DNA of 64,000 bases from Thermoanaerobaculia bacterium (GCA_963664405.1 OY761158.1:2656001-2720000), one strand, 5' to 3'. Counted from the first letter of the stretch, positions 1,729-63,384 are shown. A program made the numbers and translations. Notes: generated by a model not told the origin, from the letters alone.

Positions 1729-3048
1729 TTAGTCGACCAGAGTGTAGGCAGACTCTCGATGCGATGTGACATCGAGGCCGACTCGCTCGTCGTCTTCGTC
1801 GACGCGAAGACCGACGATCTTGTCAATCACCTTGAGCAGAATGAACGAAACTACGCCAGCCCACACGATCGTGAAAACGACAGCTTTGAGCTGGATGGCG
1901 ACCTGACCTGCATTGCCGTAGAAAAGGCCATTGGTGTCGTTGCCCGGCACCATGTCGGTGGCCCAGAGACCGGCAGCGATGGCCCCCCACATTCCGGCGA
2001 CACCGTGGACGCCGAAGACGTCGAGGGAGTCGTCGTATCCGAACTTCTCTTTGATGACGGCCAAAGCGAAGTAGGCGCAGATTGAGGCACCTAGACCCAC
2101 GCCGAGAGCGCCCATCGCGTTGACCGAGCCGCAAGCCGGCGTAATCGCCACAAGCCCGGCGACAGCTCCGGTAATGACCCCGAGCAGGGTCGGCTTCGAG
2201 TTGAGGACCCAGTCGAGAGCACCCCAGGTGACAGCGGCGGTCGCGGCGGCAATATGAGTGACCACGAAAGCATTCGCCGCCGAGCCGTTCGCGGCGACGG
2301 CGCTGCCGGCGTTGAAGCCGAACCAGCCGAACCAGAGCAGACCGGTGCCGAGCACGGCGAACGGGAGGTTGTGTGGCGGCGAGATGCCCCTCGGAAAGCC
2401 CTGTCGTTTGCCGAGCAAGAGCGCAGCGACCAGGGCTGATACTCCGGCGTTGATATGCACCACAGTGCCGCCTGCAAAGTCGAGTGCGCCGTCGGCGCCA
2501 AGGCCGAAGAAGCCACCAGCGCCACCCCAGACCCAGTGACAAACCGGCGCGTAGACCACCAACAGCCACAGGCTCATGAACAGACAGATGGCACTGAACT
2601 TCATGCGCTCGGCGAACGCACCGATCATCAGCGCAGGGGTGATAACGGCGAACATCGCCTGAAAGATCATGAACAGCTGGCCGGGGATTGCGGTGCCGTC
2701 CCAGGCATCGAAGCCCACGTCGCGGAGGAACATGTAGTCCAGGCCGCCGACGACTCCACCGAGGACGTCAGAGCCGAAGGCCAGGCTGAAACCGACCAGC
2801 ACCCAGAGAATGGTCATCAACCCCATGCACAAGAAGCACTGCATAAGGATGGACAAGACGTTCTTGCGTCTGACCAGGCCGCCGTAGAAGAAGGCGAGGC
2901 CCGGTGTCATCAACAGCACTAGTGCGCAGCTCGTCAGCATCCACGCCGTATCTCCGCTGTCAATACCCTCCTGGGCCGCCGCCGGAGGCGCCAGACCGAG
3001 GAACATGAAGAGCGCTATCAGGAGCAAGGCCCCGCGCGGTGAACTCAT
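1729..3048 (-). CDS. amtB: Ammonium transporter
   Basis: DSGDTAWML, PGLAFFYGGLVR, DFAGGTVVH, WFGWFGFNAGS, DDSLDVFGVHG; GGAGG RBS before ATG 3048. Confidence 0.97.
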   Translation of the reverse strand: MSSPRGALLLIALFMFLGLAPPAAAQEGIDSGDTAWMLTSCALVLLMTPGLAFFYGGLVRRKNVLSILMQCFLCMGLMTILWVLVGFSLAFGSDVLGGVVGGLDYMFLRDVGFDAWDGTAIPGQLFMIFQAMFAVITPALMIGAFAERMKFSAICLFMSLWLLVVYAPVCHWVWGGAGGFFGLGADGALDFAGGTVVHINAGVSALVAALLLGKRQGFPRGISPPHNLPFAVLGTGLLWFGWFGFNAGSAVAANGSAANAFVVTHIAAATAAVTWGALDWVLNSKPTLLGVITGAVAGLVAITPACGSVNAMGALGVGLGASICAYFALAVIKEKFGYDDSLDVFGVHGVAGMWGAIAAGLWATDMVPGNDTNGLFYGNAGQVAIQLKAVVFTIVWAGVVSFILLKVIDKIVGLRVDEDDERVGLDVTSHRESAYTLVD

Positions 3049-3206
3049 CGCTACCCTCCTTCGAATCGTGATGTACGGAACAACAGCATCGTACTCGCAA
3101 CAAAAACTCTCGCGCAACGACGAACAAAAACGTCGCATTGGAGGCGCGAAGGACTTTTTTTGAGCACTCGCATCAAAGCAGGCCGAGGGCGACCCTGTAC
3201 GAGTTG

Positions 3207-4559
3207 ATGACACACAGCCGCCTTGAACCCACCCCCGCTAGACAAACTCGACCCCCTCAGAGGCGTCGTCCTCGAGCGATCGTCGCTGCCCTCATCGCTC
3301 TCTCGCTGTCGGCAGTCATAGCCGAAGCGCAGATCTACCTCCCCGATTCAGACTCGGTCGCCTACTCGGCGTACGCCGCCATCGCCGGCACCAAGATCAC
3401 AGCGCACCGCGGGAGCTCGGTGAGGGGAGACCTCCACTCCAACAATAGAGTGACGATCCGTCTCCGAGCCACCGTCGATGGAGACGTCACGGCCGGGCTC
3501 AGGATCAGGCAGCAGGGTGTAGTCACCGGGACAGCCACCGAGGGGGCGCCGCTGGTCGATCTCCCATCTCCGCCGAGTCGGAAAGCGGCAGTCGCCATCG
3601 CAGACCGCACTTTCACGGGTGACCAAGTCTTTGTCGACGAGGTTTTCAACGACGTCATCTATGTCGATGGCAACGTTTCGATTCGGGGCTCGATCAACGG
3701 TGTCGGTTCCGTCATCGCGAGCGGGAAGATCGTGGTCGAGCGCCTCGATTTCGCCGGAGAGGTCGCTCTCGACGCGACGACGCGGCTCGCCCTGATCGCA
3801 TCGGGCAAAATCGAGGTGGGCCGATACCGAGCTCTGCGAGGGGCCCTCGTGACTGGCACGCGTCTCGTTCTGAACCAGGATTGTCGGTTCGAGGGTGTGC
3901 TTGTCGCCTCGAAGAGGATCGTGATCGCGAGCGACTCAGTGGTCAGCTTCGTCGATCCAGTCGGCGACACAGTAGAGCCCGCGCTGAGCTTGGTGGCTCC
4001 GAGCTCTCCCCTCGTCACCGCCGTGACTCGGATCGACCTAGCCTTCTTCTACGCCGACGACGGCACCGGATTGGATCTGGCGAGCCTGCGGGTACTCTTC
4101 AACGGCGCCGACATCACCGATGCTTGCCTGCCCGAGGCGGTCGTGGCCTCCTGCCCTGCGACTCTAGCGGGATCGGGCGAACAGACCGTAGAGGCAACCA
4201 TCAGCGACTTCGCGGGCAACATAGCGAACAAGACCTTCCACTTCGAGGCCACTCTGGACGAGGCGGCGCCCACCGTAGTCATCAACTCGCCCGCTTCGGG
4301 TGCGATCGTCTCCACCCCCCTGCTCCTGATCTCGGCGTCCGTGGCGGACGACGGCGAGGTCACGATCGTCACTGTGAACGGCAGGGTCATCGAGCCCGAG
4401 AACGGACAGATCTCCAGCCAAGTGAATCTCCGTGAAGGCGCGAACCGAATTGAGCTAACCGCCAGAGACGGCACCGGCAAGACCGCTGCTGCGGAAGTCG
4501 AAGTGACCCTCGACACCCCCAGCTCACACTTTCTAGACCCATCGAAGAGGCTTTCATAA
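3207..4559 (+). CDS. N-terminal part of a large secreted Ig-repeat protein (frameshifted near 4520)
   Basis: Signal-like RRRPRAIVAALIALSLSAVIAEAQ, a beta-rich region, then bacterial Ig-like repeats (DxxxP...DxAGN). Confidence 0.7.
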   Translation: MTHSRLEPTPARQTRPPQRRRPRAIVAALIALSLSAVIAEAQIYLPDSDSVAYSAYAAIAGTKITAHRGSSVRGDLHSNNRVTIRLRATVDGDVTAGLRIRQQGVVTGTATEGAPLVDLPSPPSRKAAVAIADRTFTGDQVFVDEVFNDVIYVDGNVSIRGSINGVGSVIASGKIVVERLDFAGEVALDATTRLALIASGKIEVGRYRALRGALVTGTRLVLNQDCRFEGVLVASKRIVIASDSVVSFVDPVGDTVEPALSLVAPSSPLVTAVTRIDLAFFYADDGTGLDLASLRVLFNGADITDACLPEAVVASCPATLAGSGEQTVEATISDFAGNIANKTFHFEATLDEAAPTVVINSPASGAIVSTPLLLISASVADDGEVTIVTVNGRVIEPENGQISSQVNLREGANRIELTARDGTGKTAAAEVEVTLDTPSSHFLDPSKRLS

Positions 4560-7462
4560 GTAACAGCGCCTCCCTCAGAGTGGTCGGAGTCGCCGCCGAT
4601 GCGACCGGCATCTCTGCCCTGAAGATCGGCAACACCTCGGTCAACCCGACCGAAGGAGCGTTCGATGAAGAAGTGGCGCTCGCCGAGGGCGCCAACAGCA
4701 TTCGGGTCACCGCTGAGGATGGGGCCGGCAACCAGACATCTGTCGAGCTGGAGGTCCATCGATTCACCTTGCCGGTGATCGCGATTCTGGCGCCCGAAGA
4801 CGCCACTCTTGTTCTAGGGACGACAACCGAGGTCAGCGGAACGATCAGCGACCCAACCGCCACGGTCGAGGTGAACGGTATCCCCGCACAGGTCGTCGGC
4901 TCCGAATTCGTCGCCCAAGATCTACCGATCGGTAGTGGAGCCAACCTGTTCAAGGCGGTCATAACAACCGCGAGCGGGCGACAGGCGGCCGACTCGATCA
5001 CCCTGTTCCGTGATCTGACGCCGCCAAGAGTCGTCATTGAAGAGCCGAGGAACGGCTCACGTGTCTTTGAGCCGACCCTCTCCGTGACCGGCATGGTCAA
5101 CGACATCGTCGTCGGAACCGTGAACTCAGAGCAGGCCACGGTTACCGTCAATGGTCAGCAGGCTGAGGTGTCGAACCGCTCATTTCGCCTTGACCGAATC
5201 ACTCTGAGCCCGGGTGAGAACGTGATCACCGCAACAGCGGTGGACCCCAGCGGCAATAGGAGCCAGGAGACAACGACCGTTCACTTCGAGGCACCCGATG
5301 GGCCCACGATCGCCATCTTCGGCGGCGACGGCCAGAGCAGCGTTATCGGCTCGCTTCTACCCGCGCCCCTATCGGCCATGCTTCGAGATCGGAATGGCGC
5401 ACCGGTGGCGGGAGAGCTGGTCACTTTTCGCGCGGTCGGCAACGACGGCTCTCTCGATGTCGGTCTCAGACAAGTGGCTCTCAGCACCGATGGAAACGGC
5501 CTGGCACAGGTGGGCTTCACCCTCGGGCGACGAGCGGGCAATCAGACCATCGAAGCCACCGCGGTCGGTTTCAGCGGCCGGGCGGTCTTCAACGCGATCG
5601 CGCTCCCGGCCCAGGCCGCGCTCCTGGTCCCGGACTCCGGCGATCAGCAGGTCGGAATCAGCTCACGGGAGCTCCCTGAACCACTGGTAGTTGTCGTCAC
5701 CGACAGTGGCTTCAACCGGCTCGGAGGGATACCCGTGACTTTCGAGATCGTCGAGGGGGAGGGTCAGCTGGAGAATGGTCTCGAAAAGTGGGTCGTGGTA
5801 TCTGACAGCGACGGGCGCGCCGCTGCCCGCCTGACTCTGGGCGCACCGGAGGGAGTCGCCAATAACGTGGTCCAGGCGCGCCTCGGAGACGAGCCTGATG
5901 ATCCGGCCGTCGCCTTCACCGCGGCCGCTCAGATCGCCGGGCACCCGAGCCTCACAACGATTAGTGGTCTGGTTCTCGACAATACAGACTTGCCGGTCCC
6001 CGGCGTAACCGTGACGGTGGCAGAGAACGCCGCAGCCAGCCAAAGCGATAACTCCGGCTTCTTTCACATCATCGGCGCACCGGTTGGGGCCCTGCACCTC
6101 ATCGTCGACGGAAGCACGGCCCAGCGGCCCGGCTCGTGGCCAACGCTCGAGTTCACGCTGACGGCGGTGCCCGGGCGCGACAATTCGCTGGGCCGACCCA
6201 TCTTCCTACTTCCGCTCGCCACTCAGAACGCACTCTTCGTCGACGAAGGGAGCGGAGGCGTACTCACCATAGCCGAGATTCCCGGCTTCTCGCTGGAAGT
6301 GGCGCCGGGGTCCGTCACGTTCCCCGATGGCTCCAGTACGGGGGTCGTCACCGTCACTCCCGTTCACAGCGACAAGATCCCGATGACCCCAGGCTTCGGT
6401 CAGCAGCCGCGCTTCATCGTAACCATCCAACCGGCCGGAGCGAAGTTCGACCCACCCGCTCCACTCACCCTACCGAACGTAGACGGCATGGTGCCCGGCG
6501 AGGTAACGGAGCTCTATTCCTTCGACCATGATCTGGGGCAGTTCGTCAGCATCGGGCCAGGTACGGTCAGCGACGACGGTACGCGCATCACTTCGAACAA
6601 GGGGGTCGGCATAGTGAAAGCCGGCTGGCACTGCGGTGGCAACCCGGGGCCGCCGGGCTGGCCCCACGACTGCCCCCTCTGTCGACGCTGCGTCTCCGGG
6701 ATCTGCGTGCCGGACTCGAGTCAAACCCCGCTCCAGTTCGCCGACGACGACTGTCTGTTTCAGGGCTGCGCTCACGGCACTCTTCTCGACTTCGAAACAG
6801 ACCTGGAGACACCTCCGCAGATAGCCGACAACTGCTTCAATGAGATCTGTCCCCGCGACGAGAAGCGGCTCGACCTCAACGACGCGCCGCTCCCACTCGA
6901 GTGTTGTGGCAATCTGAAGATCGATCTCCCCGAGGGTAGACTTACCGGCATCTACGATCCCGATAATGAATGCTGTGTCGACGACGGACTACTGATCGTC
7001 GACAAAGGCCCACCGCTGGACGATATTGAGCTATGTCCGCAGAGGTCGCGGCCACCGCTCAGCGAGCTGCCCTACGACTACCAAGGCTGCAGCGTTCCCG
7101 CCGTGGTAACCATGATCGCGGGCTTTCACTCCCCGAACAACCCCGCGGGCGGGCAGAGCACGCACTTCAGCGACTTCGACCTCGGCCCTGCCGCACAGCA
7201 CAACCTGCCCTGCGACGTCCACGACGCGTGTTTTCAATCATGCAAAACCACCGAAGCAGAGCGCACGATGTGTGATGACGACTGGCAAGACGCTCTGCTC
7301 CGTGTATGTGAGCTGGCGATGAGCCACCCGGTGGACGGTCAGGACCTCTCAATCATTCATCGCTGCTTTGTGGCCGCAAACGTCTACTTCCAAACAGTTA
7401 GCACCTTAGGGAAGTTCTTTTTCGAAGCGAACCAGAAGGACTTCTGTCAATGCTGCGACTAG
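4520..7462 (+). CDS. C-terminal part: Ig repeats, carboxypeptidase-regulatory-like and ZU5-like module, Cys-rich linker, group XII phospholipase A2-like C-terminal domain
   Basis: Frame is open from 4520 (QLTLSRPIEEAF...). C-terminus reads QGCS...CDVHDACFQSC...CDDDWQDALLRVC...C...FQTVSTLG...QKDFCQC. Confidence 0.72.
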   Translation, partial: QLTLSRPIEEAFISNSASLRVVGVAADATGISALKIGNTSVNPTEGAFDEEVALAEGANSIRVTAEDGAGNQTSVELEVHRFTLPVIAILAPEDATLVLGTTTEVSGTISDPTATVEVNGIPAQVVGSEFVAQDLPIGSGANLFKAVITTASGRQAADSITLFRDLTPPRVVIEEPRNGSRVFEPTLSVTGMVNDIVVGTVNSEQATVTVNGQQAEVSNRSFRLDRITLSPGENVITATAVDPSGNRSQETTTVHFEAPDGPTIAIFGGDGQSSVIGSLLPAPLSAMLRDRNGAPVAGELVTFRAVGNDGSLDVGLRQVALSTDGNGLAQVGFTLGRRAGNQTIEATAVGFSGRAVFNAIALPAQAALLVPDSGDQQVGISSRELPEPLVVVVTDSGFNRLGGIPVTFEIVEGEGQLENGLEKWVVVSDSDGRAAARLTLGAPEGVANNVVQARLGDEPDDPAVAFTAAAQIAGHPSLTTISGLVLDNTDLPVPGVTVTVAENAAASQSDNSGFFHIIGAPVGALHLIVDGSTAQRPGSWPTLEFTLTAVPGRDNSLGRPIFLLPLATQNALFVDEGSGGVLTIAEIPGFSLEVAPGSVTFPDGSSTGVVTVTPVHSDKIPMTPGFGQQPRFIVTIQPAGAKFDPPAPLTLPNVDGMVPGEVTELYSFDHDLGQFVSIGPGTVSDDGTRITSNKGVGIVKAGWHCGGNPGPPGWPHDCPLCRRCVSGICVPDSSQTPLQFADDDCLFQGCAHGTLLDFETDLETPPQIADNCFNEICPRDEKRLDLNDAPLPLECCGNLKIDLPEGRLTGIYDPDNECCVDDGLLIVDKGPPLDDIELCPQRSRPPLSELPYDYQGCSVPAVVTMIAGFHSPNNPAGGQSTHFSDFDLGPAAQHNLPCDVHDACFQSCKTTEAERTMCDDDWQDALLRVCELAMSHPVDGQDLSIIHRCFVAANVYFQTVSTLGKFFFEANQKDFCQCCD

Positions 7463-50616: not shown

Positions 50617-50930
50617 GCAAGATCGGCCGTAGCGAGTTCCTTCTGCTCTCGAACCGGGTTCGGACCGGCACGCTCCAAGGATTCGAGGAGGTGCTGGGGA
50701 GCGTCGGTCGGGACGAGGTGGACGCCCCGAAGGCTCCGGCGAGCGTCGACTCCCACTCGTCTCAGCGGTCCTCGGACCGGTACGCGCCACGCCCCCGCTC
50801 ACGGAAAGTCGTCCACCAGGATCTCTTCAAACCCGGCACGGAAACCTCGACAGGGATCCCTGTCCCTACCAGAAACTCCATCCGCGCAGCAGTTTCGGAC
50901 GTCACACTTGCCAGGAGTATCCTTGGTGTG

Positions 50931-51706
50931 ATGATTCGTCTTCTAGGAGTATTGCTTCGCTCAGTAGTGGCGGCACTCCAGACTCGCCGCCAGCTCGCCC
51001 TCGAAAACCTGGCTCTTCGGCAGCAGCTCTCAGTGCTTCTGTCGGCGCGGCGGCCGTCTTTGACCAACCTCGATCGGGTCTTCTGGACCATTCTCCGGCG
51101 CCGATGGAGTCATTGGACGCACGCGCTCGTGATCGTGCAGCCCGAGACCGTCGTCCGCTGGCACCGGCAGGGATTCAGGCTGTACTGGCGATGGAAGAGC
51201 CGAAATGGCAGCGCTGGACGGCCGAAGATAGACCCGGAGGCCCGAGCCTTGGTTAGAAGGATGAGCTTGGCCAACCCGTTCTGGGGCGCACCGAGGATTC
51301 ATGGCGAGCTCCTCAAGCTAGGGATCGAGATCTCGGAGACGACGGTCGCCAAGTACATGCCGAGGTCGCGCCGGCCACCCTCTCAGTCCTGGCGAGCATT
51401 TCTGGACAACCATCTCAAGGATCTGGTCTCAATCGACTTCTTCACGATCCCCTCGGCGACATTCCACGTCCTTTTCGTCCTCATCGTCCTCCGCCACGAC
51501 CGCCGGCGCATCCTTCACTTCAACGTTACCGAGCATCCCACCGCGGAGTGGACCGCCCAGCAGATGGTTGAAGCGTTTCCTTGGGACACAGCACCGCGCT
51601 ATCTCCTCCACGATCGCGATGCGGTTTTCGGAAACAACTTCCGGTCGCGTGTGGCTGGGCTCGGAATGGCCGAGGTGCTCATAGCACCACGATCGCCTTG
51701 GCAGAA
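50931..51706 (+). pseudogene. DDE transposase, N-terminal part
   Basis: NPFWGAPRIHGEL, SIDFFT, YLLHDRD, APRSPWQ. Confidence 0.87.
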
Positions 51707-51709
51707 GGG

Positions 51710-53803
51710 CTACGCTTCACACTGCACCTCCTCCGTAGGGTTCGGTTCGACGTCGAGGCGGCGCCGTCGTTTCGAGAGTTTTCGGCCCTGCATTTTGACG
51801 GGCGGGTCGTCGCCGGGATGCTCGTAGAGGCACTCGTTCTTGTCGTTGTAGGCATGGGCACGCAGCAGGCCGTGGTTGCGCCATGTCTTCACCGTGTGGG
51901 TCGCGACACCCAGTAGGTCAGCCATCTCTTCGAGGGTAAGCATTCCCCCCTCACGCAGTCGGTCGTACCTCTTCTTGATGTCGTAGTCACGGCGCAGGCG
52001 CCGGACGATGCCGGCGTGAAATCGTTTGCCCTCTCCGGAGAGATGGCCTCTGTCGTTGAGGATGCTCGCAATCTCGGCCTCGGTGTAGTCATCAAGCAGG
52101 GTATCAATCTCGGCAACGACCTGTTTCGAGGTTTGGCGTAACTCCCATGCTGTCGGCGGAATGGGCAGTTTGAGACTTCGTGTCGCGCCACCTCGGAAGC
52201 GGACACCGACAACGATCTCGTCGCCCTTCGTCAAGGTGACGTCCTCGATGAGCAAGCGCACCATGCGCTTGCGCTCGCGTTGAGGCGTCTTCGGGTCGTT
52301 CCACAACCGCGGGAAGTCGGTGGCGAGGGCGAGGATCTCTTCTCGTTGCTGGTCGCCGAGCTGTTGGTGATCTTGCTGGCGGCGCTGCTCGAGCTCCTCC
52401 TGTGCGTCGTGCAGCCCGCGCAGCCTCTCGTTCCACTCGGCCTCGAGGACATCCACCACGAGGCGGTTCCCCGGATCGACCTCCATGAAGCGACGCCGAG
52501 CCAAGTCAGCCTCCTGTCGAGCTCGCTGTACGTGCTGGCGCCGCAGGGAATCGGCCTCGTGGATCCGTGCATCGAGCTCGACCTGGACTTTCAGTGCAAC
52601 CTCCAGAGTCACAGGCGTAACCGTCTCCACAAGCAGCTCTCCGATGGCCCGATCGATGCCCTTGCCCGGGATCGACTGACACTTGGGTGTCGCGGTGTCG
52701 ATGCCCTCGCGCTGGCAGACGTACTCGGGCCACTGAGTGCCCCTGCGCGTGTGATAGCGGACCGTCATCCGATGGCCACAAACGCCGCAGAGGACCAAGC
52801 CCTGCACCAGCGCTGGCCCCTCGCGCGGTGGGCTCTTACGCCGGTCTCGGCCGTGGGCCTGGGCGTTGTCTCGTAGTCGTCTCAGGTTTTCTTCGAATCG
52901 TTCCCAAGGAATGTAACCGGGGTGCGCGTCGAGCAACAGCGCGGTCCACTCCTCCCGCGGAAGCGACTTGACCTCGACGGTGCCGTTGACGCGCTTTTGC
53001 GTGTGAGTGCGACCGAAACAGAAAGCACCTGCGTAGCGGGGATTGTGCAGCACCCTCAGGACGCGCCAGTGGCGCAGCGACTCCCACAGCAGCTCTCCCT
53101 TGTGGGGGCCGAAGCGCGGCCGGCGCGGAAACCGCAAGCCTTGCTCGCGGAAGTGTTTGACCGTCGCCGAGGCCGAGCCCGTACGCTCGAAGGTCTCGAA
53201 CAGGTGCTCGAAGCTCCGTTGGACCTGGCCGTCGGGATCTAACACGACGTTGCCGGCCGGGTCGTAGAGTAGGCCGACGGGTAACGGGGTTTGCAGCGCA
53301 CCTCGGCGCGCCTGATTCAGAATGCCTCCGCGCAGCCGAGCCCGCATCACGTGAAGCTCCGCCTCGCTCATCGTGCCCTTGAGCCCGAGCAGAAGGCGAT
53401 CGTTGAAATCACTCGGGCTGTAGACCCCGTCCTCGTCAAGGATCAGCGTGTCGGTCAGCGCGCAGATCTCCAGCAGTCGATGCCAGTCCGTGCTATTGCG
53501 TGCCAGGCGCGAAACCTCCAGCCCGAGAACGATCCCGGCTCGGCCCATACCGACCTCGCCGACGAGCTTCTGAAAGCCCTCGCGGTCGACGCTGGAGGCT
53601 GCGGACTTACCCAGGTCCGAGTCGATCACGAGGACTCGCTCGATGGGCCATCCCATCGCCACCGCGCGCTCTCGCAACGCGTACTGCCGTCTCGTGCTCT
53701 CCGTATTCTCGAACACCTGGCGCACGGTCGACTGGCGAACGTACAGGTACGCATCGCGTCGCAGGTGGCTTGGGGTCACCTTCTGGTGGGCGCTTGCGCT
53801 CAT
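51710..53803 (-). CDS. Large serine recombinase (resolvase, recombinase, zinc ribbon, coiled coil, C-terminal HTH)
   Basis: YLYVRQST, EVSRLARN, LHNPRYAG, GLVLCGVCG...YVC. Confidence 0.95.
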   Translation of the reverse strand: MSASAHQKVTPSHLRRDAYLYVRQSTVRQVFENTESTRRQYALRERAVAMGWPIERVLVIDSDLGKSAASSVDREGFQKLVGEVGMGRAGIVLGLEVSRLARNSTDWHRLLEICALTDTLILDEDGVYSPSDFNDRLLLGLKGTMSEAELHVMRARLRGGILNQARRGALQTPLPVGLLYDPAGNVVLDPDGQVQRSFEHLFETFERTGSASATVKHFREQGLRFPRRPRFGPHKGELLWESLRHWRVLRVLHNPRYAGAFCFGRTHTQKRVNGTVEVKSLPREEWTALLLDAHPGYIPWERFEENLRRLRDNAQAHGRDRRKSPPREGPALVQGLVLCGVCGHRMTVRYHTRRGTQWPEYVCQREGIDTATPKCQSIPGKGIDRAIGELLVETVTPVTLEVALKVQVELDARIHEADSLRRQHVQRARQEADLARRRFMEVDPGNRLVVDVLEAEWNERLRGLHDAQEELEQRRQQDHQQLGDQQREEILALATDFPRLWNDPKTPQRERKRMVRLLIEDVTLTKGDEIVVGVRFRGGATRSLKLPIPPTAWELRQTSKQVVAEIDTLLDDYTEAEIASILNDRGHLSGEGKRFHAGIVRRLRRDYDIKKRYDRLREGGMLTLEEMADLLGVATHTVKTWRNHGLLRAHAYNDKNECLYEHPGDDPPVKMQGRKLSKRRRRLDVEPNPTEEVQCEA

Positions 53804-54087
53804 GCGTGGTTCTCCCGTACATGGCCGAGAGCCATCGCAGCCAACACGTTGATCAGATCCGCGCTCGTATCGTGAGGCAGCGCGGACGGCCTGGCTATCT
53901 CGGCGGACGGTGCCTGCGTCGGCGCGGGCATCTTGGACCCCTGTTCAACCCAAGCGGCCAGCCCTTGTCGCAGGAGAACGGCCAAGCCGAACCGAACCGA
54001 TAGGAGCTGCCGCTTCGCCGCATGTCCTCGGAGCTCCTCGTAGCGAGCGACATGGGCCGGAGCGTTCTGCTGGGGTGTCGCGCTCAT
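53800..54087 (-). CDS. Small accessory protein of the recombinase element
   Basis: RYEELR...GLAVLLRQGLAAW...LINVLAAMAL; 4-nt overlaps with both neighbours. Confidence 0.75.
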   Translation of the reverse strand: MSATPQQNAPAHVARYEELRGHAAKRQLLSVRFGLAVLLRQGLAAWVEQGSKMPAPTQAPSAEIARPSALPHDTSADLINVLAAMALGHVRENHA

Positions 54088-54551
54088 GGCCGGCGTTTTT
54101 TTTCCTGGCGAGCCAGGGCTCGCTCAATGCTGCGCGGATGGATCGAGATGCCAAAGCGCTTCTGCACCCACTCGGCCAGGGCGGTTGCATCTGCGTCCGG
54201 CTCCCCCTCCAGCCTGTCGTGCAGGGCCTCGACGACCTCCTCGGATAGCTTGTGGGCGCGGCGCGGCCCCGGCTTTCTTGGCAGCAACGCGGGTAGGCCG
54301 CCTTCTTCGTAAACCACCTGGGCGTGGTAGAAGGATGGGCGCGACAACCCGAAGCTTGCCGCGCTCCGGCTCACCGTGTGTCTGTCCACCCGGACACGGC
54401 GCAGCATCTCGTACTTGACCTGCACGAGGTCTCGAGGGTCGAAGAACTCGCTCGAGGTGAACAAATCGTCCGAGACCTTCTCCGGCTGGGGATGAAGGCA
54501 CCCTCGTTGACGGAGGGCCTCGGCTTTCGGGTCGGGTCTGCGTCGCGGCAT
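54084..54551 (-). CDS. Helix-turn-helix protein of the recombinase element
   Basis: FFDPRDLVQVKYEMLR, FGLSRPSFY, KPGPRRAHKL, IHPRSIERAL; GAGGAG RBS. Confidence 0.82.
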   Translation of the reverse strand: MPRRRPDPKAEALRQRGCLHPQPEKVSDDLFTSSEFFDPRDLVQVKYEMLRRVRVDRHTVSRSAASFGLSRPSFYHAQVVYEEGGLPALLPRKPGPRRAHKLSEEVVEALHDRLEGEPDADATALAEWVQKRFGISIHPRSIERALARQEKKRRP

Positions 54552-54579
54552 GATCGTCTCCTCATGGAATGTAATTCTA

Positions 54580-54607
54580 ATTATACCTCTCATGGATCCT
54601 CTGTCAA
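54580..54607 (-). promoter_or_regulatory. Consensus sigma-70 promoter driving the HTH-ORF-recombinase operon
   Basis: TTGACA (54607-54602), 16-nt spacer, TATAAT (54585-54580). Confidence 0.8.
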
Positions 54608-54766
54608 GGGGTGTCCACCAAGAGAGTACCGATAGATCGTGCATTAAATTGGCCTATCTCTACACTCCTGGTCACACTCCGGCACTCTTCCCGACATAAT
54701 TGTGATTACATTCACGGCATAATCTCCTTTACGCACGGTGCCCCTCAACCGTCCTCACGCAGGTCT

Positions 54767-55061
54767 TCATCGCTCGCTCTCCCGGGTCAGCTTGGCGAGC
54801 TCGAGCAGGTCGGCCAAGCGGTACATCGATCTGCCTGCGGAGATGACAACCACGGGGTCCTCGGCCACCGCACTCGTCCAACGCGCTGGAAGGGAGCGTA
54901 GCTCCTCGCATTCATCCAGGTAGAAGACCCGGTCCTCGCCCCAGCACTGGCGATAGTGAGCCAGCTCGTACTCACGCCCCAACAGCGGGTGGAACGGATG
55001 GGTTACCCGAAAACGTCGTTGCTCACAATCTGTATCGGGTGCATTCGACCATCGAGCCCAA
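54767..55061 (-). CDS. DUF5372 (Y4bD/Y4pK-like) protein; the frame extends to the att core without its own start codon
   Basis: FRVTHPFHPLLGREYEL...WGEDRV...SLPARWTS...DP...GRS..R.ADL. Confidence 0.72.
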
Positions 55062-55311
55062 TCCCTATGCTGAGCGCGTCATCGGCTCCATGCGGCGAGA
55101 ATGTCTCGATCACGTTATCGTGCTGAACGAGGCCCATCTCCGCCGGATTCTGCGTTCCTTCGTCACCTACTACCATCGCTCAAGAACCCATCTCTCCTTA
55201 GACAAGGATGCTCCTGAGGCACGAGAGGTGCAGGCTCCGAGGATGGGACGCGTGGTGGAGTTGCCCGAGGTCGGTGGGCTCCATCACCGGTACGAACGCC
55301 GGGCGGCGTAG
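55062..55311 (+). pseudogene. DDE transposase, C-terminal part
   Basis: NPYAERVIGSMRRECLDH...GGLHHRYERRAA. Confidence 0.87.
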
Positions 55312-55656
55312 TCATCCAGCGGGGTTTTCAGAGCCGTCGGGAATCTTGCTGCGTGTTCCGCTGCTACTCGGGAGGCGTGCTCTCGCACGTCGTCCCGTTA
55401 TTCGATTGCTGAGCCTCCACGCCGTTCACCCTGAACCTGCAGGCCCCGGAGAAAGTGCTGCCATCGTGTGCAAGATCCGGTGCGCCAAACGCCCGGACGG
55501 GTTTCTTGGTAGGCACACGTCGACCTCACTCACCGCGGCGCGACCTCCTGCTGATCTCTCTGTTCGCCGAGCCCCGAACCACGCAACACGGCGCAGAAGT
55601 TCACCTTCGCCCGCTTGGCAAGCGCGATACGATCGGTTGACCCGAAAAGGAAATCC

Positions 55657-56061
55657 CTATCCCTTTCCAAAAGAAGCGTATGGCTCTCGCCGATTGCGCC
55701 GGGACTGCACCAGAATGTCGATCGCATCGCCGTCGTCATCGACAGCCCGCCACAGATACTGCCGCCGCCCCTGGATCTTCGCGAAGACCTCGTCCAGATA
55801 CCAAAAGTCGCCCATGCCGCCGCGGCGGCCCCGCAACGGCCGAGCGTAGTCGATTCCGAACATCACACACCATGGCCGAATCGCCTCCTACGTCACCGTG
55901 ATATACCGTTCTGCGAGGTCTCGGAAGCTGAGACCGAAACGGTGATAGAGCCAGACGGCGTCACGGATGATTTCAGGGGGAAACCGGTATCCAAACGATA
56001 GCTGGGTGGTGGGTTCGCCATCGACGTACTCTGCCAGCCACGGCCTCAACTTGCCAGCGCC
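55657..56061 (-). pseudogene. Degenerate IS6 family element
   Basis: YRFPPEIIRDAVWLYHRF and WYLDEVF...YLWRAVD in different frames; IR ggcgctggcaagttga at 56061. Confidence 0.8.
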
Positions 56062-56090
56062 GCTGCTGGCCAACCAACGAGACGGCACAA

Positions 56091-56597
56091 GTGGAGACAC
56101 TACCTTTGACTAACTCACTCGAATCCAGCATCGGAGCTCGCGGCTTTCATTTTGTTGCTTTGTGTTTCTGTCTAATTTTTCCCGCTTGTGCGTCGGCGCC
56201 TGTCGAGTGGGTAGACGTACCGCTGGCCGATAATGTCTACTTTGAAGCCAGTCCTGTTTATCAGACGGACCAGGTTGAAATTCCAGTTCCTGCCAATTCG
56301 GATCTCGAATACATGCTGGACATGAAACAAGGTCATTCAGTGTCCTATCAGTGGAGATCCACAGACATCTCGAATCCTGAACTTCTTCTTGCAGAATTTC
56401 ATGGTCACACGGTAAGAGATTCTGAAGAGCCTGGAAATGTCATGTTTTTCAAGCAAGGCCGTGGCGACACGTCAGATGGCTATCTGGTCGCGCCTTTTGA
56501 CGGTGTACATGGCTGGTATTTTTCGAACGAAACGGACACTGATATCCATATCGCTCTTTCACTGTCTGGTTTCTACACAATACCTGACCCTGAATAA
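56091..56597 (+). CDS. Hypothetical exported/lipoprotein, lower GC
   Basis: Hydrophobic stretch plus Cys; LEYMLDM.QG, EFHGH, APFDGVHGWYF. Confidence 0.65.
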   Translation: METLPLTNSLESSIGARGFHFVALCFCLIFPACASAPVEWVDVPLADNVYFEASPVYQTDQVEIPVPANSDLEYMLDMKQGHSVSYQWRSTDISNPELLLAEFHGHTVRDSEEPGNVMFFKQGRGDTSDGYLVAPFDGVHGWYFSNETDTDIHIALSLSGFYTIPDPE

Positions 56598-57001: not shown

Positions 57002-57805
57002 GGTACTGTCAGGTTGAGCCGATGGGTGGCAGAGTCGGCCCATGAAAAGCAGCACGCCCAGCTACCGCGGTCACCGGTTTCCGCCCGAGATCATCACTCA
57101 CGCAGTCTGGCTCTACCACCGCTTCTGCCTGAGCCTTCGCGACGTCGAGGATCTCTTGGCGGAGCGAGGAATCGTCGTCTCCTACGAGACCATCCGTCAA
57201 TGGTGCCGGAAGTTCGGCACGGAGTACGCCCGCAAGCTGAAGCGGCGAAGCGGCCGACTGGGTGACACCTGGTTCTTGGACGAGCTCTTCGTGACCATCC
57301 AGGGCAAGAGGCAGTACTTGTGGCGTGCCGTCGATCAGGATGGCGACGTCATAGACATCCTCGTGCAGCCACGCCGTGATCGAAAAGCAGCGGAACGCTT
57401 CTTCCGCAAGCTCTTGCAGGGCCAAGGGGCAGAGCCGGTGCTCCTGGTGACCGACAAGTTGAGGAGCTATGGCGCAGCGCACCGGACCACTATGCCCTCT
57501 GTCAGGCACGATACGAGCCAGTACGCCAACAACCGTGCCGAGGTCTCCCATCAGCCGACCCGGCAGCGAGAGCGACAGATGCGCCGCTTCAAGTCGCCCG
57601 GCCAGGCGCAGCGATTCCTCTCCGCTCACGCAGTCATCCAGAATCTGTTCCGGGTTGGGCGGCACCTCGTCAGCTCAGCCAACTACCGGACGCTGCGAGA
57701 TCGCTCCTTCGGCGTTTGGCGACAGGAGACGTGCGTCTGCTGAACTCGGAATCAAGGCCCGTCCGCGGCACAAGCTCGCACCGGCAGGATTAACTTGACA
57801 GTGCC
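57002..57805 (+). mobile_element. IS6 family element, apparently intact (transposase 57042-57743)
   Basis: IRs ggtactgtcaggtt / aacttgacagtgcc; WFLDE, YLWRAVD, VTDK, NNRAEVSH. Confidence 0.93.
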
Positions 57806-61910: not shown

Positions 61911-63384
61911 CGTCGTTGCCTCCAAGTTGGTCGTAGTCCTCGAGGTTGTGCGGTCTCACGGAGAGATCTCGCTGTTGGAGCTCCTGGCTGAGCGGCACCG
62001 GTAAAGCCGGGGGCTGACCGAGGCCGCGCTGGTGCCGTTCGAGTAGGAGCCGGACGGACTGGAATCGCGGTGCGTGGTTCAGGAGCGCTTCGCGCACGGC
62101 TTTGTCGAGTCGCTGGGGGCCGTACTGGCGCAGGAGTCGGAGCAGGCCGGCGGTCTGCGTTCCGAGGTTCTCGCCTCGCTCGGCGAGCTGCTGCATCAGC
62201 TCTTCGCATCGAGGCACAGCGGAAAACAGCCGATGGAAGCCCCGGTGTCGTCGGGCCCTGCGTTTGTGAGCGAGGAGCTCCTCGAGGTGTTGAGGATCGA
62301 GGATCTGCTCGCCCCGGGAGTACGAGCGAGGGTGCTCGGCGAGGAGCTCCTGGCCATCGAGGATCCGCACCCGATGCTCGCTGGCGAGGAGCGTGACGGT
62401 CCTCTGCACATGACTGTGCGGCACCGAGTAGTCGTTGAGGTCGAAGCGCACGATCGGCGTCTTTCTGACCTTGATCTCCAGTCGCAGGTCGGTTTCGAAG
62501 TCGTCTCCGGGAAGCTCAAGCAGTCGAGGTCGTTCCTGGGCCAGGGCGCTTTTCACGGTTCGCTGTCGGTCCTGCGGCCAGGGTCTGCGCTGCGACCTCT
62601 GGCACCATTCCAGGACCTGCCGATTCAGACGATCCAAATCGCTCACCGTTCGGGCGCCGAAGAACGAGCTTCGCAGGAAGCGGATTGCGCGCTCGACGCG
62701 GCCTTTCTCATTTCCCCGAGCCACCGCGGCGACGGTGGGAAGGAAGCCGTAGTGGCTGGCGAAATCGAGCAGCACGGGATGGAAGCGCACCGCGGTTCCC
62801 TGCCGCTCGATCACCGCGGTTCGCAGGTTGTCGTACAGAACGGTCCTGACGACGCCGTCGACGTAGTGGAAGGCCAGCTGGTGAGCGTGCAAGAAGGTTT
62901 CGAGACGAGTGTCGAGGGTGAAGTGCACGAAGACCGTGCGCGAGAACGACAGCACGAAGACGAAGGCATAGAGCCGACGATGTGCCCGGCCGACGCGGAG
63001 CCGACCGAAGTGGCCCCAGTCGACCTGCGCCTGCTCTCCTGGCAGCATGCGCAGCGAGAGAAACGCCTCGCGCTGGGGCTTCGGTCGCATCGAGGCCACC
63101 AGGTGGCGAAACTGATCCGGGCCTCCTGGATAGCCGCGCTCCACCACCATGGTGTAGAGACGGCTCGCCGGCAGTCGTGGGTAGGTCCCGAGCACCTGCT
63201 CGATGAACGGCAGGTAAGGATCGATCATCCTCCCTCGTCGCTGCTGGGGTAGCACGCCGGACTTCTCCAGCGCCCGGCGCACGGTTGAGGGGTGCAGCTG
63301 TAGCTGTCGAGCGATCGTGCCGACTTTCCACTTCTCGACCAGGAACAGACGACGGATCTCCCCGCGCAGCTGTGCGTCGATCAC
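61876..63384 (-). CDS. istA: IS21 transposase
   Basis: PGEQAQVDWG, VLYDN, NEKGRVER, FDLNDYSVP. Confidence 0.95.
   Translation of the reverse strand: MIDAQLRGEIRRLFLVEKWKVGTIARQLQLHPSTVRRALEKSGVLPQQRRGRMIDPYLPFIEQVLGTYPRLPASRLYTMVVERGYPGGPDQFRHLVASMRPKPQREAFLSLRMLPGEQAQVDWGHFGRLRVGRAHRRLYAFVFVLSFSRTVFVHFTLDTRLETFLHAHQLAFHYVDGVVRTVLYDNLRTAVIERQGTAVRFHPVLLDFASHYGFLPTVAAVARGNEKGRVERAIRFLRSSFFGARTVSDLDRLNRQVLEWCQRSQRRPWPQDRQRTVKSALAQERPRLLELPGDDFETDLRLEIKVRKTPIVRFDLNDYSVPHSHVQRTVTLLASEHRVRILDGQELLAEHPRSYSRGEQILDPQHLEELLAHKRRARRHRGFHRLFSAVPRCEELMQQLAERGENLGTQTAGLLRLLRQYGPQRLDKAVREALLNHAPRFQSVRLLLERHQRGLGQPPALPVPLSQELQQRDLSVRPHNLEDYDQLGGNDDGPTQEESNDP

Follow-up and report, generated by a model that had tools for sequence, protein, structure and literature searches.

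We analysed a window of 64,000 nucleotides from a Thermoanaerobaculia bacterium (GCA_963664405.1 OY761158.1:2656001-2720000; the window is the whole stretch of DNA studied, and positions are counted from its first letter), in which a DDE transposase gene of an insertion sequence (IS) is interrupted by a second mobile element. This element, of 3,353 bp at 51707-55059, is very probably an autonomous, cargo-less IS of the NGRIS-4 family, which relies for its movement on a large serine recombinase (LSR) instead of a DDE transposase and homes into one motif of DDE transposase genes, in which an Asn or Lys codon is followed, after three residues, by the catalytic Glu (N/K-x3-E). Insertion at N/K-x3-E as a family criterion is a working definition of this analysis and not a published one. 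The four genes of the element all lie on the minus strand, antisense to the host transposase, and inspection of the open reading frames (ORFs) and of the Pfam matches revealed nothing inside it besides these four mobility genes. The element, its ends, its recombinase gene and the two parts of its host are the following.

51707-55059, minus strand: mobile element of the NGRIS-4 family, supported by the identity of five copies, the four-gene synteny in relatives and the module annotated on plasmid pNGR234a.
51705-51706, plus strand: putative crossover dinucleotide AA of the left junction (attL), found as a single AA in the empty twin site.
55060-55061, plus strand: putative crossover dinucleotide AA of the right junction (attR), the first two bases of the Asn codon in N-PYAE-R.
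51707-51728, plus strand: left-end arm of attP, with GGGCT (51707-51711), 11 nt and TGCACC (51723-51728), an end conserved across 79 junctions from relatives.
55038-55059, plus strand: right-end arm of attP, with GGTGCA (55038-55043), 11 nt and AGCCC (55055-55059), conserved in relatives.
51710-53803, minus strand: LSR of 697 aa, with Pfam Resolvase, Recombinase, Zn_ribbon_recom and a C-terminal HTH_17/MerR_1.
50922-51706, plus strand: left part of the host IS, the N-terminal ~260 codons of an IS481-like (rve_3-type) DDE transposase ending with ...APRSPWQ; similarity to an intact twin starts near 50922.
55060-55517, plus strand: right part of the host IS, with 83 C-terminal transposase codons followed by the IS end; similarity to the twin ends near 55517.

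The host frame reads ...SPWQ up to 51704 and resumes with N-PYAERVIGS from 55060. The left part matches Pfam HTH_32 and HTH_21, and the NCBIfam IS481 profile reaches position 228 of 284 at the junction. In the right part, Pfam rve_3 aligns residue 1 to profile position 16 and the catalytic Glu is codon 5 (55072-55074). The Glu at this +5 position, with a Lys or Arg seven residues later, is what we take to be the third catalytic residue of the DD(35)E signature. Since the insertion separates the catalytic Glu from the two Asp residues, the transposase is broken. An uninterrupted twin of the host IS, 99% identical, is present at C1:5155862-5156663 of the genome (6.78 Mb, one contig). The matches of the two flanks to this twin overlap by exactly 2 nt, and the natural empty site reads GATCGCCTTGGCAG-AA-TCCCTATGCTGAGC. 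When the two ends of the element are joined, the arms form a symmetric inverted-repeat attP in which 11 of 11 specified positions are complementary at fixed distances from the core, with a chance probability of about 4^-11. The final codons of the recombinase gene, its stop included, lie within the left arm.

The recombinase exhibits Pfam matches to Resolvase (2.8e-17, residues 18-169), Recombinase (PF07508, 1e-11) and Zn_ribbon_recom (PF13408, 2.2e-7), i.e. a resolvase domain with its serine, then a Recombinase domain and a zinc ribbon, as in LSRs, and it matches the PHROG 95 integrase with 2e-48. In an alignment of 50 sequences S25, within a YVRQST stretch, and C339, C342, C363 and C375 are invariant; by its position S25 would be the nucleophilic serine. 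No DUF4368 match was found (Pfam, E<=0.01). A developmental excision recombinase of the XisF type was considered and rejected, as NF041201 gave 73.4 bits for a cut-off of 375. The initial annotation had described a serine-integrase element, with AA at 51705-51706 and 55060-55061, a host frame SPWQ/NPYAERVIGS (here and below the slash marks the junction), a symmetric attP and a rebuilt attB. The recombinase domains and the AA core bounding all copies agree with the first of these claims, direct reading confirmed the dinucleotides, the frame and the attP, and the rebuilt attB is equal to the natural empty site of the twin.

The genome contains five intact copies of the element, 99-100% identical and 3,353 or 3,350 bp long, which differ by substitutions and one 3-nt indel only. 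All four genes are intact in each copy, the LSR being a stop-free frame of 697 aa, and AA is present on either side of all five. Near-identical copies at several places, with mobility genes only, are the marks of an insertion sequence, and both were found here; a prophage or the remnant of an integrative and conjugative element was rejected for a unit of 3.35 kb with four genes and no cargo. The junctions of the five copies, and an unoccupied target within the window, are given below.

Copy E1: SPWQ/NPYAER, in an IS481-like host of the rve_3 type.
Copy E2: ...RPRT/NGKAERF, in an IS481-like host; the left side keeps ~13 nt of that IS, with another repeat beyond.
Copy E3 (L003), C1:3059616-3062968: GDCWD on the left and KGRVER on the right, the left flank being of IS3 (244.6 bits) and the right flank of IS21.
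Copy E4: ARGNE/KGRVER, in an IS21-family host (178.6 bits, curated cut-off 160).
Copy E5: RPYRPRT/NGKAERF, in an IS481-like host.
62690-62725, minus strand: unoccupied target in an intact IS21-family copy, ...ARGNE-K-GRVER, with AA at 62706-62705; the same site is occupied in copy E4, C1:6340685.

The five copies thus occupy four host elements, namely an IS481-like element of the rve_3 type, another IS481-like element, an IS21 and an IS3. Both flanks fit N/K-x3-E in E1, E4 and E5, as do the right flank and the last left bases in E2, while E3 joins an IS3 left flank to an IS21 right flank. About 22 IS21 copies of the genome are empty at the target, each with one AA. A single AA in the empty sites and at each junction would be expected from a conservative exchange at a 2-bp core without target-site duplication. 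The right half of the E3 host is a diverged (98.8%) IS21, and the partner halves of both E3 flanks are absent from the genome, which points to a deletion caused by two element copies recombining. Among ~23 otherwise identical IS21 copies, one at C1:2648190-2648210, ~8 kb before the window start, has a single extra A (ATGAAGAAAGG in place of ATGAGAAAGG) located 1-3 nt from the AA core. This A frameshifts the transposase, is the sole difference in ~800 nt compared, and could be a scar, a selected change or a coincidence.

Junctions were then tabulated for 110 loci of relatives (30 from a genome collection and the best 80 of 159 from a metagenome collection) together with the five own copies. The end-motif filter was passed by 79 left and 34 right junctions, of which 74 and 31 remained after removal of identical 26-nt flanks. 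Among these non-redundant junctions, 71 of the 74 left ones end in AA and 30 of the 31 right ones begin with AA, the exception, L033, being probably a spurious end match. The 30 right junctions with AA encode Asn (20) or Lys (10) at +1, Glu at +5 in 29 cases (Lys in one) and Arg at +6 in 25. A Glu codon at +5 follows 4.66% of the 467,598 AA sites of the genome, which for 29 of 30 gives P ~7e-38, a value that overstates the significance because the junctions are non-redundant at 26 nt and related IS copies are not independent.

The same position was found with protein profiles. Of 27 right flanks submitted to Pfam, 13 match rve_3, all 13 with residue 1 at profile position 16, and six match Mu-transpos_C or Mu-transpos_C_2, ~65-77 residues downstream. 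Of 61 left flanks, 25 match rve, and 24 of these reach profile positions 95-102 of 102, ending 2-9 residues before the junction; nine others show transposase-type HTH domains only and two something else. With NCBIfam, run on 22 chosen long flanks, the IS3 junction falls between position 313 of 369, where the left flanks end (L003, L028, L051, L131), and position 314, where the right flank starts. The left flanks in IS21 end at 225-226 of 294 (L004, L026, L079, L114), and in IS481 the left flanks end at 226-228 of 284 and the right starts at 229. The initial annotation had proposed as target the PWQN motif that precedes the catalytic Glu. The flanks of the homologues bear this out, with recurrent insertion at one codon (29 of 30 right junctions), and extend it to the homologous N/K-x3-E of RNase-H-fold (rve) transposases of the IS3, IS21, IS481-like, ISNCY-like and Mu-like types, in many phyla and always in antisense orientation.

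At the DNA level, the consensus of the right half of attB after AA is nGsnWAnGYnGARCG..T..T, and the left half retains only C at -10/-11 and A at -7. The inner 9-bp arms of the element are identical to the right half of attB at positions 2, 5, 6, 8 and 9 (GGGCTACGC compared to nGsnWAnGY), and T5 and G8 recur in all four half-sites of the element's clade. By analogy, this sharing would be the usual attP-attB relation of an LSR. A shift by 5 bp of outer attB bases mirroring the TGCACC of attP was checked by eye and does not fit. A position weight matrix derived from the junctions of other genomes gave the transposase sites of the present genome the highest ranks among its 467,596 AA sites (mean -25, standard deviation 9.4; occupied sites 12.7 to 27.2), in a test that is partly circular. 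One insertion outside transposase genes, L015, keeps T5, G8, Y9 and GAG at +11 to +13; this speaks for a recognition of DNA and not of a gene class.

A protein search of a plasmid collection returned 456 records with relatives of the recombinase, the majority from rhizobia (124 from Rhizobium, 99 from Sinorhizobium, 76 from Bradyrhizobium). On pNGR234a of Sinorhizobium fredii NGR234, a cultured and non-pathogenic model strain, all four genes of the module are present in the same order, under the source names 'putative transposase number 1-4 for insertion sequence NGRIS-4' (y4bD/y4pK, y4bC/y4pJ, y4bB/y4pI, y4bA/y4pH), and the recombinase is 52.8% identical over residues 1-685 (tblastn, E=0). 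The element shares with NGRIS-4 the four-gene module, the ~695-aa recombinase, the cargo-less unit of ~3.3 kb and the relatedness of the recombinase, and is a new member of this named but uncharacterised family. Both have AA at the two junctions, TGCACC at positions 17-22 of the recombinase-side arm, and ISNCY-like and IS21-like targets. They differ in the core-proximal (inner) arm bases, so that these details are clade-specific, and in an internal GTG that is annotated as the start of the NGRIS-4 DUF5372 gene. Three copies on pNGR234a, of 3,318 or 3,300 bp and bounded by AA, lie at TPQA/KGRVERANQTLQDRL, PRRPRD/KAKVE and PRRPQA/KAKLE, all three fitting K-x3-E, and a Burkholderia plasmid copy, whose recombinase is 62.6% identical, splits an IS3 transposase at GDCYD/NAPMESF. 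Therefore, the target rule holds down to 53% recombinase identity, including in cultured strains. Recombinases 75-93% identical were found in metagenome-assembled genomes (MAGs) labelled as many phyla, including on a 7.0-Mb Spirochaetia chromosome and on long contigs of Gemmatimonadetes, Gammaproteobacteria and Polyangiaceae, whereas 40 genomes of the same family or order gave no recombinase >53% identical.

Our literature search, which did not cover the original description of NGRIS-4, returned no description of a serine recombinase targeting a DDE motif, nor any paper on DUF5372; within the literature searched, the target rule and the circle-only gene described below are apparently unpublished.

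The fourth gene of the module, encoding a DUF5372 protein, is split between the two ends of the integrated element.

54767-55057, minus strand: body of the DUF5372 gene, with a frame open to the right end of the element and no start codon upstream of the domain.
51718-51734, minus strand: Shine-Dalgarno sequence GGAGGAGG (51734-51727) and GTG start codon (51720-51718), apart from the gene body by the whole element when integrated.

Over profile positions 1-73 of the Pfam family, the start-less frame reaches 74.3 bits; the ORF beginning with TTG reaches 50.8 bits, over positions 11-73. In the circular form, the DUF5372 frame runs across the junction to the GTG at 51720-51718, which overlaps the stop codon of the recombinase and is preceded by GGAGGAGG. 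As the ribosome-binding site and the start codon are at the opposite end of the element, the protein would be translated in full only from the circle. Because the frame closes across the junction, the circular element would form one four-gene operon, and integration would sever the last gene from its start. Among 29 distinct two-ended elements, 26 have the HPxHP motif, and in 26 of 26 a start codon (24 GTG, 2 ATG) with a Shine-Dalgarno sequence is positioned precisely 14 nt ahead of the core. An in-frame start within the right end is missing from ten of the 26, including four distinct own copies (L001, L002, L003, L005), which are not independent; the own copy L004 was left out of this count by the redundancy filter. 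The remaining 16 speak against a strictly circle-dependent gene, as they carry an internal GTG 6 nt or TTG 51 nt before the motif, from which a shortened DUF5372 is possible, and the 'circle-only' character may be a matter of degree. The NGRIS-4 copies likewise have a frame that continues through the circle junction, where GTG is found at -14 and ATG at -11.

The predicted DUF5372 model (predicted local distance difference test, pLDDT, 84) consists of a small three-stranded sheet and two helices. It gave no significant structural match (Foldseek E>=0.35; VIA Z<=3.2, to small barrels of the chromo/Tudor/SH3-like type). NCBIfam and PHROGs returned no match, and the protein atlas returned DUF5372 clusters only. 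The position of the start codon points to DUF5372 as a possible signal of the excised state.

The two other accessory genes and the regulatory region of the element are as follows.

53800-54087, minus strand: orf95, a 95-aa helical protein of no known family, whose start and stop each overlap the neighbouring genes by 4 nt.
54084-54551, minus strand: helix-turn-helix (HTH) protein of 155 aa, with Pfam HTH_32, HTH_29 and HTH_28.
54567-54713, minus strand: regulatory region, with a sigma-70 promoter and an 18-nt inverted repeat.

The 4-nt overlaps of orf95 suggest translational coupling. In an alignment of 47 orf95 sequences Y16, R20, G34, G42 and W46 are invariant, and the predicted model (pLDDT 75) has helices at 9-51 and 76-94; no match was found in NCBIfam or PHROGs and none in the protein atlas. 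The HTH protein resembles the N-terminal DNA-binding part of IS630 and IS481 transposases (NCBIfam IS630 6.5e-12 and IS481 4.8e-8, N-terminal positions only), and a direct comparison with the N-terminus of the host transposase showed no similarity (E=10). Upstream of the HTH, orf95 and LSR genes, a consensus sigma-70 promoter, TTGACA-16-TATAAT, is present at 54607-54580 with 12 of 12 consensus matches, and 48 of 66 distinct relatives keep it with no more than a single mismatch in each hexamer. The arms of the inverted repeat (54567-54584 and 54696-54713) are 83% complementary; one of them is overlapped by the -10 hexamer and the other lies ~90 nt upstream of the -35 hexamer. Across the 110 relative loci, the LSR gene was found in 110, the HTH gene in 90, orf95 in 76 and DUF5372 in 71, the misses being mostly at the ends of short contigs or of loci. 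Rfam gave no RNA family within 50800-55600. In three metagenome relatives (L051, L090 and L102), the stretch from orf95 to the matched start of the recombinase is longer by 0.5 to 2.8 kb, which may correspond to secondary insertions into the element itself.

Several observations weigh against a mobile element that homes strictly into N/K-x3-E. Three distant relatives (L020, L021, L116) have no AA at the left junction, where the ends may be mis-set, and no Pfam match was obtained for 25 of the 61 left and 8 of the 27 right flanks, which are mostly short. A luciferase-like monooxygenase gene is the target of L058, and a gene without a known family that of L015. L060 interrupts an IS256-family (Mutator-type) transposase, a class apart from the rve transposases usually hit, at profile position 250 of 338 (280 bits), and its right flank is off the contig. 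The left flanks of L024 and L027 are not transposase-like and that of L023 mismatches the right flank; these loci may be rearranged. The taxonomy of MAGs may be wrong for short repeat contigs, and the DNA motif is inseparable from the protein-level conservation of the target. Finally, no circle junction was present in the four sequencing runs, of which contigs only were searched.

Off-target insertions such as L058, L015 and L060, and a left half-site of attB that carries little information, would agree with a weak site preference for AA and a few bases, as in TndX or TnpX, the bias for transposases being then due to selective loss of the insertions made elsewhere. Survivorship could enrich IS elements, but it would not give the single-codon precision found here (29 of 30 at N/K-x3-E), nor 13 of 13 rve_3 matches starting at position 16, one profile column per IS family and a constant orientation, and we regard this explanation as very unlikely. 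The target could also be chosen by an accessory protein, either the transposase-like HTH protein or DUF5372, which would recruit the recombinase. The resemblance of the HTH protein to the DNA-binding region of IS630/IS481 transposases, the synteny of the three accessory genes throughout the family and attB half-sites that are unusually degenerate for an LSR speak for such a role. Nevertheless, the same base-pair-precise site is used across IS families with unrelated ends and N-termini, the HTH protein is dissimilar to the host transposase in the window, the inner arm bases and the right arm of attB are alike, as is usual for attP/attB pairs, and the off-target L015 retains the DNA consensus, including GAG at +11 to +13; a choice made by an accessory protein is thus unlikely.

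The copies might instead be relics without movement of their own, spread passively by duplication or by transposition of the host IS, as neither a circle nor a fresh insertion was seen in the contigs of the four runs and the chimeric flanks of E3 show that homologous recombination reshuffles copies. Passive copying cannot produce five copies in four host elements, and all ORFs are intact at 99% identity, which makes this explanation scarcely credible. Recent movement is better supported, because five near-identical intact copies sit in four hosts, occupied and empty copies of the same IS coexist, and recombinases 75-93% identical are found across labelled phyla, with none >53% identical in 40 relatives of the genome. 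Three of the four runs contain a contig joint at which 3,355 nt are skipped and 2 nt overlap, as expected from the twin IS. A bridging contig of run X4 has the alleles of the copy in the window at all five positions that discriminate the twin; it may represent an unoccupied site in the sample or a chimeric contig, and is a weak hint of reversal.

For an autonomous NGRIS-4-type IS that homes into transposase genes, we propose the following mechanism. Exchange between attL and attR, catalysed by the recombinase, would release the element as a circle, which would then re-insert by attP x attB. The attB would be a degenerate DNA motif of ~40 bp, supplied by chance by the N/K-x3-E-R coding sequence, whose core-proximal bases are shared with the arms of the element. 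The HTH, orf95 and LSR genes would be expressed as one operon from the consensus promoter, probably auto-regulated through the flanking inverted repeat. DUF5372, made in full only from the circle, would probably report the excised state and bias the reaction towards integration. Transposase genes would offer landing sites that are multicopy and dispensable, travel horizontally and are available in almost any new host. The disruption of the host IS would be reversible, and the element may travel inside this IS, as the initial annotation had proposed.

A second recombinase lineage of the same genome and two loci from other genomes bear on the wider group. At C1:~3816822-3819455 (L117 ~2323-4956), a 696-aa recombinase, 37% identical, is accompanied by a 157-aa upstream ORF; the gene of this paralogue lies at C1:3817159-3818940. 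The L117 element splits an IS3-like transposase at a conserved C-terminal motif, ...DYIEIFY/NRSRRHSTLGYVSP (...EIFY/NRSRRHS), with AA at both junctions. In L121 (G007:C105) and L122 (G004:C38), from the same family as the genome, recombinases 52-53% identical are located in IS200-like (Y1_Tnp) transposase genes, just after ...VERLVYLLR, at Pfam profile position 116 of 121. The preference for conserved motifs of transposases therefore seems to extend to a wider group. A broader proposal, to which we give an even chance, is that these elements are obligate hyperparasites of DDE transposons, with an attB that matches N/K-x3-E-R DNA in IS3, IS21, IS481, ISNCY and Mu-like elements of any phylum, that sister lineages hit the FYN of IS3 and the Y-x3-N of IS200-like Y1 transposases, and that DUF5372, whose gene is whole only in the excised circle, serves as a topological switch that turns the reaction from excision to integration.

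The nearest functional parallels are the clostridial elements Tn4451/Tn4453 (TnpX) and Tn5397 (TndX), which use a large serine recombinase as transposase, excise as a circle and cross over at 2 bp; the circle junction of Tn4451 creates a promoter for tnpX. In both cases the circle junction creates an expression signal, which here, as read from the sequence, would complete an entire gene (DUF5372). In contrast to the present element, Tn4451 and Tn5397 have cargo (catP, tetM), a GA core, many loose targets and no known preference for transposase genes, and DUF5372, the HTH protein and orf95 are not reported there. TndX-like enzymes are placed in a DUF4368-rich, multi-targeting clade (Durrant et al. 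2022, PMC10083194), unlike the recombinase of the element, which gave no DUF4368 match. In the parts of that text covered here, transposase genes are not mentioned as LSR targets (Durrant et al. 2022, PMC10083194).

With the phage integrases (phiC31, Bxb1, A118/LI type), the element shares the order Resolvase-Recombinase-zinc ribbon, an inverted-repeat attP with a non-palindromic 2-bp core, and inner arm bases common to attP and attB. Phage integrases work for their phage at a single attB within a host gene, whereas the element is cargo-less and multicopy, has a degenerate attB across transposase families, and encodes an enzyme with an extra C-terminal MerR/HTH_17-like domain. IS607-family elements are IS moved by a small serine recombinase, TnpA, without target-site duplication. 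TnpA differs from the present enzyme by its small size, its N-terminal MerR-like HTH, its low target specificity and the lack of a zinc ribbon or recombinase domain. The use of mobile or repeated elements as safe multicopy landing sites is known from the group II intron RmInt1 in ISRm2011-2 and from IS1111/IS110 elements in repeats. These move by retrohoming or by an RNA-guided DEDD recombinase, and each has a single target sequence rather than a motif common to transposase families.

Next to the host IS, fragments of an IS6-like transposase were noted by eye in the ORF translations, on the minus strand at 55657-55866 and 55888-56100 (within 55650-56100), as was an intact-looking 233-aa copy on the plus strand at 57042-57743; this region is an IS graveyard.

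The initial annotation had also seen in the element a candidate integration tool with defined sites. The readable attP and the natural attB support this, but the attB is degenerate and multi-target and does not correspond to a single defined site. The element would thus be of interest as a compact serine recombinase with a readable attP and natural attB sites, and as a possible natural case of topology-gated expression. Many 'pseudogenised' transposases and many 'recombinase family protein / DUF5372' gene sets probably correspond to an NGRIS-4-type element, and such 3.3-kb repeats break assemblies. This is a mobile element living on others, which uses as address their most conserved catalytic coding sequence, a site that is dispensable, multicopy and horizontally spread. 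Transposase landing sites may explain the presence of recombinases 75-93% identical across many labelled phyla when 40 relatives of the genome have none above 53%. Recombination between copies may drive rearrangements, as E3 suggests, and the family may dampen IS activity, as a transposase is lost with every insertion.

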